64,000 bases of DNA. It comes from an uncultured delta proteobacterium. Lineage in GTDB: Bacteria; Desulfobacterota; Desulfobaccia; Desulfobaccales; 0-14-0-80-60-11. The position numbers and the translations under genes are program-made. Positions 37,560 through 42,409 of this stretch are shown here, piece after piece (within the stretch, counting starts at the first letter, position 1; each line of letters starts with the position of its first letter). The notes beneath the pieces were generated by a model. It searched no databases. It was not told the origin of the DNA and was given only the letters and a program-made list of their open reading frames with translations. The stretch lies in contig CAWETI010000002.1 of NCBI GenBank assembly GCA_963812015.1, positions 544,001 to 608,000 on the forward strand, written 5' to 3'.

Positions 37560-37740
37560 TATAGCAATTGCCAAAAGTTCTTTCCGTTATGGAACATGCT
37601 CCAGGAACCTAAATCCCCCCTACCCCCCTTTTCCAAAGGGGGGAACTTAGCGGAATTCCTTTTAAAGTCCCCCTTTGAAAAAGGGGGATTTAGGGGGATT
37701 TAAAAACCATCACTGAGAAGAATTTTTGGCAAACGCTATA
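37560..37740. mobile_element. ~180-bp MITE with 22-bp TIRs and TA ends (IS630/Tc1-like)
   Basis: TATAGCAATTGCCAAAAGTTCT ... AGAATTTTTGGCAAACGCTATA (19/22 match). Core is the same AAATCCCCC...TTTTCCAAAGGGGG / CCCTTTGAAAAAGGGGG palindrome pair. Confidence 0.8.
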
Positions 37741-39497: not shown

Positions 39498-39604
39498 GGT
39501 GAATAATAGCCGCAGGCTTTACCGTGAACAACTTCAAATCCCCCTAAATCCCCCTTTTCCAAAGGGGGACTTTAATACCCCCCTTTGAAAAGGCGATTAT
39601 TTAC

Positions 39605-39633
39605 TTGACAAATACATATCGCTAATTTATATT
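39605..39633 (+). promoter_or_regulatory. Inward sigma-70 promoter in the IS left end
   Basis: TTGACA-N17-TATATT, with the -35 inside the TIR. Confidence 0.7.
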
Positions 39634-39783
39634 CTATTTCAAGCGGTTTGACGGCCTTCCTCTGCGCCGGAGTATCCGCAGATAGCTCTCGATTTTGGTT
39701 GATATTTGGAAAAAAATAAATATTGCTCTCCGGGCAATATACCGGAGGGCAACAATAAAAAACCCATTTTAAGGGAATCAGCC

Positions 39784-40758
39784 ATGAAGATGCACGATGC
39801 CACCTTTGATGAAAAAAGGTTCCATGATGAGAACGCGGCCCGCCAATTTCTTGAGGCGATTATCTGGCCTAACGGCCCGGTATGCCCCCATTGTGGCGCA
39901 AGTGGCCGTATTTGCCGCATTGAAGCACAGAGCAAAGAGAAAGGCAAGGGTGCGCGCCCTGGCCTGCGTGCCTGTGGCGATTGTCGCAAACAGTTCACTG
40001 TCACTGTCGGCACCGTCTTTGAACGCAGCAAGGTTCCTCTCCATAAATGGCTATTGGCTACACATTTGATCTGCTCAAGCAAGAAAGGCATATCAAGCCA
40101 CCAGTTAGGCCGCACCTTGAAAGTGACCTATAAAACGGCTTGGTTCATGTCGCACCGCATCCGCGAAGCGATGAAGCCTGTTAACCCTGGAATGTTGGGC
40201 GGCGGGAATAATCCGGTTGAAGCCGATGAAACTTTTGTGGGAAGTAAGCCGGGGAGAAAAAAGCGCCGTGGTTATGCACATAAAAACGCCGTCCTCTCGC
40301 TTGTTGAGAGAAACGGCGCCGTCCGCTCTTTCCATGTCCCCAGCGTCAATGCCGATACCTTGAAGCCCTATCTCAAGGCCAACATCACCCCGGATGCTCA
40401 CCTTATGACCGATGATGCAGGGCAATATAGGCTTATAGGCCCTGAGTTTGCCAGGCATGATGTTGTTTGTCATAGTGCTGGGGAGTATGTGAGAGGTAAG
40501 GCGCACACGAATACGGCTGAGGGGTTTTTCAGTATCTTTAAGCGCGGCATCTACGGGGTTTACCAGCACGTTAGCCCCTTCCATCTGCACCGCTATACCA
40601 CGGAGTTTGACTTCCGCTATAACCATCGTGAGAAGCTGGGCTTTGATGATACTGAGAGAGAAGCCCAAGCCCTCAAGGGCATTTCCGGCAAACGTCTGAC
40701 CTATCGGCGGACTGACCAAACTTCTTTGTCCCTTCAAGAAGGGGAAGAAATGCACTAG
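39784..40758 (+). CDS. IS1595-family DDE transposase
   Basis: Zn ribbon WPNGPVCPHC...CGDCRKQFTVTVGTVFE; KGISSHQL; VEADET, MTDD, HTNTAEGFFS, EFDFRYN and GKRLTY. Confidence 0.95.
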   Translation: MKMHDATFDEKRFHDENAARQFLEAIIWPNGPVCPHCGASGRICRIEAQSKEKGKGARPGLRACGDCRKQFTVTVGTVFERSKVPLHKWLLATHLICSSKKGISSHQLGRTLKVTYKTAWFMSHRIREAMKPVNPGMLGGGNNPVEADETFVGSKPGRKKRRGYAHKNAVLSLVERNGAVRSFHVPSVNADTLKPYLKANITPDAHLMTDDAGQYRLIGPEFARHDVVCHSAGEYVRGKAHTNTAEGFFSIFKRGIYGVYQHVSPFHLHRYTTEFDFRYNHREKLGFDDTEREAQALKGISGKRLTYRRTDQTSLSLQEGEEMH

Positions 40759-40837
40759 ACGCTGCCCCTTTCAAATCCGCCCCAAGAACAAACCGGAATG
40801 CGCGCTAATTACGCGATTTCGCTTTAAAACTCCATGA
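40712..40837 (+). CDS. Cryptic 41-codon Cys-rich ORF overlapping the transposase 3' end (+1 frame, CTG start only)
   Basis: LTKLLCPFKKGKKCTRRCPFQIRPKNKPECALITRFRFKTP*; same CPF..C..C.F..ECA pattern as 40904-41083. Confidence 0.45.
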   Translation: MTKLLCPFKKGKKCTRRCPFQIRPKNKPECALITRFRFKTP

Positions 40838-40903
40838 CTTCTCGTCTACCTTTGTGCTATGGTGACTTTGCGAGAATGACCATATCTAAGGAGACGAGAA
40901 GTC

Positions 40904-41083
40904 ATGAATAAATGCCCCTTTCAGCCCAAAAAAGATTGTCCTATTGAAAATTGCCATTTTTATATTGAATTGGCACACGAATGCGCTTTCGTTTTTACTG
41001 CAAATTCTCTTGTAAGAATTGAGAACCTTTTGCAGCGATTTTATCATGATTTTAAAAACCCACCAATCCAAATTACTGATTAA
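40904..41083 (+). CDS. 59-aa four-Cys mini-protein (IS cargo)
   Basis: AAGGAG RBS; MNKCPFQPKKDCPIENCHFYIELAHECAFVF...; below the ORF-track cutoff. Confidence 0.65.
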   Translation: MNKCPFQPKKDCPIENCHFYIELAHECAFVFTANSLVRIENLLQRFYHDFKNPPIQITD

Positions 41084-41085
41084 TT

Positions 41086-41256
41086 TTATTGTAAGGTCAA
41101 GGTATTGTATAGGGCAGTAATAATTCCTTGATGAGGATAAAGCCCAAAAAGGGCCTCTAAATCTGATAGAGTTATACCACCCTCAACTTTGATGAAATCC
41201 TTAACCAAGGCAACCACTTTGTCTTGGAGGATTTGCTTTTTGCTTTGCTCTACCAT
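41086..41256 (-). CDS. 56-aa hypothetical protein (IS cargo)
   Basis: Near-perfect RBS TAAGGAGGTGG; MVEQSKKQILQDKVVALVKDFIKVEGGITLSDLEALFGLYPHQGIITALYNTLTLQ*. Stop lies 2 nt from the convergent ORF's stop. Confidence 0.65.
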   Translation of the reverse strand: MVEQSKKQILQDKVVALVKDFIKVEGGITLSDLEALFGLYPHQGIITALYNTLTLQ

Positions 41257-41273
41257 TTTACCACCTCCTTAAG

Positions 41274-42041
41274 ATGACTGATATATTTGCCGATTCAAAA
41301 ATCCGTCTCGCACAAGCAAAGAGACATATCCTTACACTTAAGAAAGAGATTAGGGCTTTCCTCGAAAAGTATGCAAAAAAGACCTACGTTATTTAAACCG
41401 ATCCCTCTGATTCTGATTGCTATTTGCATAAAATCAAAATTACAGAGAGACCTTCTCAAGAAATCGTAGCCTTTACTACTGATATTATTGACAATCTCAG
41501 GGCAGCCCTTGACATTGCTTGGCATAATCTTGCCGTTACCGGTGGGTTTGTCAGTCCCCAATTCGAAGCGAAGTTTCCTTTTGCTGATAATGTCACGAAG
41601 TTTAATGGTATGCTGGACAGAGGATTCAAGAATTTCTCGCCAGAGATTGTCGCGCTTGCGATGGGGTTCAAGCCATACAAAGGAGGGGACGATCTGCTCT
41701 GGGCACTGAACAGGATATGTGCTGCAAATAAGCACCGCCTGCTTACTACCCAATTTATTGGTTTTCACAAGATTGAGGGAGGAATTACAAAGTGGGGTCC
41801 CGGAGAGGTTCCTTCTGACATGAGGTGGGATCACACAAAAAATGAGATCATATTTTTCCGTACCCATGGTGAGATATGGACTGATTGCAATATACACGTT
41901 ACCTTTGTAATATCCTTTGATAAATCTATTGATGTCGTGGGACAGAAGCCAGTCACTACTACGCTTAACGCCTTGGCTGATAAAGTCGAGAACATCTTGA
42001 AAGCTCTTGAAGGGGCGGCACAGACATTGGGGGTTGCCTAA
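41274..42041 (+). pseudogene. ~255-aa hypothetical gene (possibly HEPN-like) with an in-frame TAA at codon 41
   Basis: MTDIFADSKIRLAQAKRHI...TYVI*TDPSD...DNLRAALD...KPYKGG...LNRICAANKHR. One continuous frame except TAA at 41394-41396. Confidence 0.7.
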
Positions 42042-42089
42042 GCCGATTTTGGCCTTGCCTTTTCCCATCGGCTGGCCTATTCTGTAACC

Positions 42090-42227
42090 ATGGACCAGCC
42101 CATGAAGGACAAGCCCCAAAAGGGGAAAATCCATCCTGACGAAATCGACGTGCTTCGCAGGATGCTTACAACCCCGCCCCAGCCACGCAAAAAGGCGCAG
42201 AAAAAGGCAGAGAAAGAAGCTAAGTAA
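42090..42227 (+). CDS. Small basic protein near the IS right end
   Basis: MDQPMKDK...DEIDVLRRMLTTPPQPRKK; resembles the LxRMLxTPP mini-ORFs I recall from IS1595-type elements (not searched). Confidence 0.6.
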   Translation: MDQPMKDKPQKGKIHPDEIDVLRRMLTTPPQPRKKAQKKAEKEAK

Positions 42228-42409
42228 CCGTTTTGCCTATTCTTCGTGTCTTTCTTGTAAAGTTTTCCAAAACATAGCATTCTTCAAGTATACCATCCCC
42301 TTTGAAAAAGGGGGGCAGGGGGGATTTTTTATCATTAGGGATAAAATATTTGTGGTTCATGAACGTTTAGCTTCCACTCGGGGCTTATAAAAACCCCATA
42401 GCATTTGAG

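Follow-up and report, generated by a model that had tools for sequence, protein, structure and literature searches.

Within the window analysed here, a stretch of 64,000 nucleotides from an uncultured delta proteobacterium, the 3' end of an IS1595 transposase gene is overlapped by an open reading frame (ORF1) in the +1 frame, and a second small ORF (ORF2) follows across a hairpin. How do ribosomes enter the +1 frame, and does the hairpin tie expression of ORF2 to that event? An earlier note on this DNA guessed that ORF1, which has only a CTG start, is reached by +1 frameshifting from the transposase, and took the hairpin for a translational-coupling switch. On balance, comparison with related sequences leads us to favour two separate devices lying side by side, a +1-recoded transposase tail and a portable promoter-plus-lock hairpin.

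The features of the element are collected in Table 1. Its transposase combines a DDE domain with an N-terminal zinc ribbon (PF12762, PF12760) and scores 191 bits against NF033547 (cut-off 75), and its ends are terminal inverted repeats bordered by an 8-bp target duplication, which places it in the IS1595 family. We take its subgroup to be the ISNwi1-like one, the passenger-gene carriers. Like IS1595 elements with passenger genes, it joins DDE and zinc-ribbon domains, short terminal repeats, an 8-bp duplication and cargo ORFs; unlike here, public records of IS1595 elements annotate the frame-0 transposase only. The left terminal repeat was also matched at the ends of four other loci (L001, L002, L004, L005). 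The element is present as a single copy in the genome, and its closest named relatives are labelled Desulfobaccales or Syntrophobacterales. X1 contigs are identical to it over 39646-41115, but X1 may be the source sample and these contigs do not count as independent. A sequence search found no solved structure of an IS1595 transposase. The insertion target was a repeated intergenic palindrome, of a family found at 37610-37704, 39533-39591 and 42297-42327 and abundant in related metagenomes.

Table 1. Features of the IS1595 element and its borders (positions in the window).
Feature	Position	Strand	Remarks
IS1595 element	39592-42300		2709 bp, with terminal inverted repeats inside an 8-bp target duplication
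Left target-site duplication, 8 bp	39584..39591		Identical 8-mer at 42301-42308
Left terminal inverted repeat	39592..39611	+	13 of first 17 bases equal to right end (by eye)
Putative sigma-70-type promoter-like site for the transposase	39605..39633	+	11/12 consensus match
IS1595 transposase, frame-0 product, 323 aa	39787..40758	+	PF12762 E 3.8e-35, PF12760 E 1.5e-13
Putative +1 shift window	40702..40714	+	Tyr codon TAT, CGG CGG, one free base, +1 Leu codon
+1-frame tail (ORF1), four Cys	40703..40837	+	Frame open from 40700; stop in hairpin left arm
Conserved hairpin	40833..40906	+	ORF2 SD and AUG paired with left arm
Extended -10 promoter-like motif, hairpin 5' half	40853..40863	+	Predicted start near 40870, in loop
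ORF2, 59-aa four-Cys small protein, variable cargo slot	40904..41083	+	SD AAGGAG at 40888-40893
56-aa ORF convergent on ORF2	41086..41256	-	Homologues at ORF2 slot: L283, L301, L302
Cargo gene with in-frame TAA at 41394-41396	41274..42041	+	Homologues in 8 loci
45-aa basic ORF, common near IS1595 right ends	42090..42227	+	Weak tblastn matches, many loci
Right terminal inverted repeat and target-site duplication	42281-42300 and 42301-42308		

Re-examination bore out the +1-frame reading of ORF1 and the Cys pattern that it shares with ORF2. A TGA at 40697-40699, just upstream of the open stretch, closes the +1 frame, so that entry can occur only within a few codons of the RLTY motif; the frame ends at the TGA at 40835-40837. 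The likeness of ORF1 and ORF2 is weak in pairwise alignment (11/29 identical, E 7e-4) and moderate between profiles (hhalign probability 77%, E 2e-5). As judged from these alignments, the two are members of one small, loose four-Cys family, which had no match in the libraries searched. They had been described as tandem paralogues: the common family stands, whereas a recent tandem duplication was ruled out for want of DNA likeness, the shared DNA word being only 11 nt. For ORF2 itself, an 86% identical homologue (P0003) was found and a family alignment (A2) built; Pfam, NCBIfam and PHROGs gave no match, and its atlas matches all stayed under 0.9.

Related elements do not lack the Cys pattern in the +1 frame. 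It was present in four others (L082, L083, L306, L325), and in all five elements the four Cys are kept in the same frame while their codons alternate between TGT and TGC. Against L082, ORF1 differs by five synonymous and one non-synonymous codon changes; against L083 there are 13 of each, and codon position 3 accounts for 19 of 37 base changes. Conservation of both Cys ORFs as a pair is another matter: L082 carries ORF1 with an unrelated ORF2, and L089, L094 and L097 have a four-Cys ORF2 behind non-Cys tails, so the pair is not obligate. Antisense coding was rejected, those frames being broken by stops in L081 and L083 and having a higher pN/pS. A search among longer proteins for in-frame fused forms of ORF1 yielded no candidate, which is weak evidence. 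Read from these comparisons, ORF1 is a real +1-frame coding tail of the IS1595 transposase and not a CTG-started gene.

The same arrangement recurs far beyond this locus. Among 139 distinct GKRLTY-type transposase ends (L001-L188), a Leu at Tyr+3 was found only in the +1 frame in 119, in both frames in 6, in neither in 14 and only in frame 0 in none. A wider motif gave 165 ends (L001-L330), of which 132 were of the +1 type, 20 neither and 13 in-frame; counts differ between our analyses, as motif filters and locus sets differ. The +1 frame was longer than frame 0 in 131 of the 132 +1 ends, and in the +1-only group frame 0 stays open for a median of 10 codons, +1 for 28 and +2 for 3. More distant relatives were retrieved by querying with in-frame proteins: they show RLTY-K/N-x-L-I/T/V without a shift and reach a stop shortly afterwards; the +1 ends of L175, L131 and L051 correspond to the codons of these relatives plus one extra base after Tyr. 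A midpoint-rooted FastTree tree of 166 tips (160 loci after 90% dereplication and 6 in-frame proteins) placed all 127 +1 ends in one clade with support 0.905, together with 16 'neither' ends and no in-frame tip. The family's terminal Leu is kept across transposases about 50% identical, and the tails differ by subclade, from basic helices to acidic tails and, in this element, the four-Cys tail.

Past the frame-0 stop, pN/pS was 0.29 in the +1 frame over 14 disjoint pairs, chosen by DNA identity and using 28 of 124 ends, versus 0.47, likewise low, in the antisense frame that shares the wobble base and 1.1-1.94 in the remaining four frames. Codon position 3 held 68 of the 122 differences. By this measure, +1 tails are under purifying selection. 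One subclade keeps the position of its frame-0 stop as well, and both frames therefore appear to matter. Since 20 of the 165 ends lack the Leu in both frames, the tail may be dispensable. An AlphaFold model of the in-frame protein P0108 gave its last residues low-confidence pLDDT values of 56-66 and no helix, and is uninformative about a need for YxxL.

How the +1 frame is entered was examined on a more strictly filtered set of 96 +1 ends, 85 after dereplication. The +1 Leu codon was CTG in 27, TTG in 26, CTA in 17, CTC in 12 and TTA in 3, and 37 of the 85 lacked any ATG, GTG or TTG there. No SD was found 4-16 nt upstream of the +1 codon (median -1.5 kcal/mol). These codon counts and the missing SD led us to reject a CTG start for ORF1, entry from the transposase frame being far likelier; selected +1 coding thus proceeds with no start of its own, unless a near-cognate AUN serves as one. 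The Tyr codon of the site was TAT in 77/85, as against 301/748 (40%) of core Tyr codons, and the codon after it was CGG in 60/85, as against 92/1754 (5%) of core Arg codons, the usual site being TAT CGG CGG. A slow A-site codon would fit this bias, which may also come from dual coding of a +1 Gly and a frame-0 Arg; CGG also follows Tyr in 7 of 17 'neither' ends. Neither P-site re-pairing of the prfB type nor an SD stimulator was found, inspection giving no cognate +1 codon except in three GGG GGG ends, and a homopolymer run is absent from the site in most members. A skip at any position between Tyr and Leu would restore the ancestral YxxL spacing. Ribosome hopping between matched Leu codons was rejected, take-off and landing codons being identical in only 16/85.

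The tail might instead be a separate micro-protein, made by ribosomes that scan back after the frame-0 stop and re-initiate at an AUC, AUG or AUA overlapping the Tyr codon, and complementing the truncated transposase in trans. That overlapping +1 codon is indeed ATC in 71, ATG in 4 and ATA in 2 of the 85 ends (AUN in 77/85), the frame-0 stop always lies 5-19 codons away, and termination-reinitiation appears as a proposal for IS91 orf121-tnpA in the part of the source covered here (PMC13181058). Yet ACC, ACG or ACA replaces AUN in the other 8 ends, the missing SD weighs here as well, and the +1 register exactly restores the in-frame YxxL motif. Re-initiation is further weakened by the Tyr codon TAC, which arose 12 times by parsimony with tails kept (e.g., L061, L119, L148, L174), and we consider it unlikely.

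Polymerase realignment that drops one base would move the frame change to the RNA. Several insertion sequences use transcriptional realignment, some of it +1, according to the sections of a 2016 review drawn on here (PMC5009743), and the GGG GGG runs in three ends (L052, L064, L077) would permit it; most ends have no homopolymer, however, and slippage on CGGCGG would keep the frame, making this very improbable. Less credible still is an untranslated relic left by a permanent frameshift, comparable to the relaxed 3' ends of IS1239 after a 1-bp deletion that are described in the portion consulted of PMC13630536. Tails that differ wholly between subclades and the 20/165 ends without Leu would suit a relic. 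The low pN/pS past the frame-0 stop, the Leu kept at about 50% transposase identity and the alternating Cys codons of the five elements argue against one.

Programmed +1 ribosomal frameshifting, giving a long and a short transposase, is thus the likely explanation on sequence grounds, and the earlier guess that ORF1 is reached from the transposase frame rather than from its CTG gains support in a form far more general than one locus. We propose that a single base was inserted directly behind the Tyr of the C-terminal RLTY motif in the forebear of a large IS1595 clade. The last residues of the motif (xx-Leu-Thr/Val/Ile) and a tail of about 10-45 aa today sit in the +1 frame, where selection still acts on them. 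Most ribosomes would end in frame 0 after some 10 codons and make the short transposase, whereas a fraction would pass over a single base on the way from the Tyr to the Leu codon, probably during the wait at a rare Arg codon. These would make a long transposase with the ancestral motif and a variable tail, which in this element would be a captured four-Cys module. The shift probably rations complete transposase, like the -1 shifts in IS1 and IS3; we assign the active form to neither product.

The part of the 2016 review covered here lists programmed -1 frameshifting in the IS1, IS3, IS5 and IS630 families, states that no insertion sequence had been recognised to use +1 ribosomal frameshifting, and leaves IS1595 unmentioned (PMC5009743). 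As in those families, the amount of complete enzyme would be governed by a change of frame within the transposase gene; unlike in them, the change here is +1, comes only behind the entire DDE domain, at the very C-terminus, and has neither slippery run nor SD stimulator. The same sections describe 'corrective' +1 frameshifting where one base has been inserted, in yeast Ty3 and in animal mitochondria, including those of glass sponges, in which rare UGG_(A) or CGG_(A) codons are the shift site and the inserted base adjoins GGA (PMC5009743). The IS1595 site fits a +1 shift at a slow codon without re-pairing, of the kind described there in Ty3 and in the mitochondria of sponges: an ancestral insertion of a single base is likewise retained and apparently decoded around, and CGG CGG A resembles the sponge site. 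It differs from the mitochondrial and Ty3 cases in involving bacterial ribosomes and a mobile element, and in a frame-0 product that is near full length with a conserved stop. The tandem rare Arg codons of the site also recall the +1-type shifts at AGG_AGG and AGA_AGA in E. coli (PMC5009743, same sections), but those are over-expression errors, whereas here the codon is CGG and the feature selected. The literature covered here contained no report of IS1595 frameshifting, and a prior mention elsewhere is possible.

The hairpin, for its part, was found as the earlier note had described it. The inverted repeat 40833-40847/40892-40906 is perfect over 15 bp, and CCTT (40849-40852) pairs with AAGG (40888-40891) across a bulged A. 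Folding of RNA 40800-40930 gave -41.2 kcal/mol (z = -5.5), and none of 200 shuffles was as stable. Covariation, which had been suggested as a check, was seen as compensatory change in 7 of 20 pairs among 11 aligned copies, all in the outer helix that buries the SD and AUG. None of 500 shuffles reached the covariation score and slid controls collapsed, although relatedness inflates such tests. A covariance model detected hairpin homologues in 19 of 83 genomes of the order, several of them weak matches, and a pattern search found 25 metagenome loci, for 40 distinct copies overall; invariance of the core is partly circular because the core was the search pattern. The pattern was absent from viral contigs, and Rfam gave no match up to E 5. 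Two more copies lie in the same genome as this element, G000 (C3:1842756-1842849 and C3:811533-811626; L095, L302). They sit within elements of another IS1595 subgroup, and behind each comes an ORF of the four-Cys type, in one case truncated.

Different genes follow the hairpin: four-Cys proteins and zinc ribbons in some copies, coiled-coil-like peptides or longer genes in others. ORFs in this cargo slot are unrelated, mostly polar and 44-258 aa long, unlike the small hydrophobic toxin of a type I toxin-antitoxin system. IS1182/IS5-type elements whose transposases have PF05598 and PF01609 (DUF772 and DDE_Tnp_1; L285, L288, L290, L291, L298, L300) bear the same promoter-like core and lock some 45 nt in from their left end, with a strong hairpin over the transposase start and no conserved gene upstream.

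The invariant unpaired part of the hairpin 5' half fits an extended -10 motif, and this half is kept where pairing is lost (L083, L093). With a promoter match in the 5' half, the hairpin probably silences read-through mRNA. In genome G000, the motif class TGTGnTAnnnT was 73% intergenic against a background of 26% (crude gene calls), and the extended -10 class lay upstream of a same-strand gene in 67/157 cases, versus 10-15% for four altered control motifs; the exact TG[CT]TATGGT was not clearly enriched upstream of genes (4/33), and no clear -35 element was found for the hairpin promoter. A start about 7 nt downstream of the -10 motif would fall in the loop, and the hairpin pairs the SD and AUG with sequence upstream of this predicted start, as in an IS10-type lock. 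Over 17 loci, opening the ribosome site had a median cost of 23.1 kcal/mol in read-through RNA versus 8.9 from the internal start. We therefore picture a portable promoter-plus-lock: a transcript begun in the loop would leave the ORF2 ribosome site open, whereas mRNA reading through from upstream would carry both arms and so bury the SD and AUG. That this is the main role of the hairpin, given a putative promoter, seems to us quite likely.

As the earlier note stated, the hairpin pairs the ORF2 ribosome site and ATG with the segment holding the ORF1 TGA. Its further proposal, a switch under which translation of ORF2 waits for shifted ribosomes to complete the tail, draws on a close fit: in each of the 19 copies with an abutting tail (10-44 aa, about four sequence types), the stop of the tail falls within -7..+5 of the arm, while the frame-0 stops of these copies lie 13-98 nt from it, and a ribosome at the stop lowers the opening cost of the ORF2 site in this element from 28.2 to ~8 kcal/mol. 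Coupling is thermodynamically plausible here and in L082 because the stop is inside the stem; in the Cys-tail relatives L306 and L325, by contrast, the ribosome barely opens the site (22-29 kcal/mol). The hairpin is moreover intact at many loci with no such ORF. No upstream ORF ends at its foot in 20 of 21 tail-less copies, among which L309 has only 33 nt of flank and L096 and L319 are decayed; in the lone exception, L003, an ATG-started ORF of at least 40 aa ends within 8 nt of the arm. A stop triplet in some frame ends at -8..-2 in 18 of the 21, and is thus part of the A/T-rich flank of the module, which also fronts transposases at the left ends of another IS family. As the chief function of the hairpin, an obligate coupling switch is hard to sustain and we judge it rather unlikely. 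Coupling is possible as a local extra and probably secondary: ribosomes ending the +1 tail may provide a minor second input where the stop is in the stem.

Sequestration has precedents among insertion sequences. IS10 is reportedly protected against outside promoters by a read-through lock, in work ascribed to Davis in 1985, and IS50 likewise has its ribosome site sequestered in read-through transcripts. For IS10 read-through transcripts, sequestration of the ribosome site is cited in the part of PMC13181058 drawn on here, and a 5' hairpin of IS200 is mentioned in the corresponding part of PMC4513863. As in IS10 and IS200, an inverted repeat buries the SD and start codon of an IS gene; unlike theirs, the present module stands before cargo genes that follow the transposase and also before the transposase of another family, and gave no match in Rfam. 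Besides promoter-lock and recoded tail as separate devices, a single scheme may be envisaged in which the whole IS1595 clade frameshifts efficiently at a non-slippery TAY-CGG-CGG site, toggling between a short form, often ended by Ala, and an active long form whose tail slot is exchangeable and has here taken up a cargo domain with four Cys; shifted ribosomes would also open the cargo gene further on. This we hold to be possible but doubtful; were it true, insertion sequences would have their first case of this kind and bacteria a novel +1 signal, and Arg-tRNA supply would gate transposition.

Productive +1 ribosomal frameshifting is rare in bacteria. If the shift is confirmed, many IS1595 transposases are annotated with a wrong C-terminus or with just one of two, a translation-linked control step is added to the family, and more than 100 natural variants of a re-pairing-free +1 site become available for testing base skipping. 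The hairpin would add a promoter-lock RNA motif, new and portable, that shields the expression of cargo from transcription of the transposase.

Some minor observations concern the transposase tails and the cargo region. In L017, L033, L034, L156 and L176 the +1 frame after RLTY runs into long (>120 aa) cargo ORFs, where a frameshift could fuse whole domains to the transposase. Frame-0 tails end in Ala in 38/85 cases, or 38/69 of those of at least 6 aa, versus 20% internal Ala; this element ends in His, and 4 of 13 in-frame ends also end in Ala. C-terminal Ala can act as a degron, and the Ala end of the short form might, purely as a lead, be a protease tag. The ORF type at 41086-41256 on the minus strand (56-59 aa) lies tail to tail with the ORF2 slot in several cassettes (L283, L301, L302) and has further homologues in L003 and L005; its end overlaps sequence resembling a relic IS1595 right end (41096-41127). 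Homologues of the 41274-42041 cargo gene occur in other IS1595 elements, and that in L322 (258 aa) seems, by eye, to stand directly behind the hairpin. Within 42021-42227 on the plus strand, an ATG at 42050 is preceded, at a distance of about 6 nt, by a promoter-like hexamer pair, also noted by eye; the 45-aa basic ORF follows downstream.
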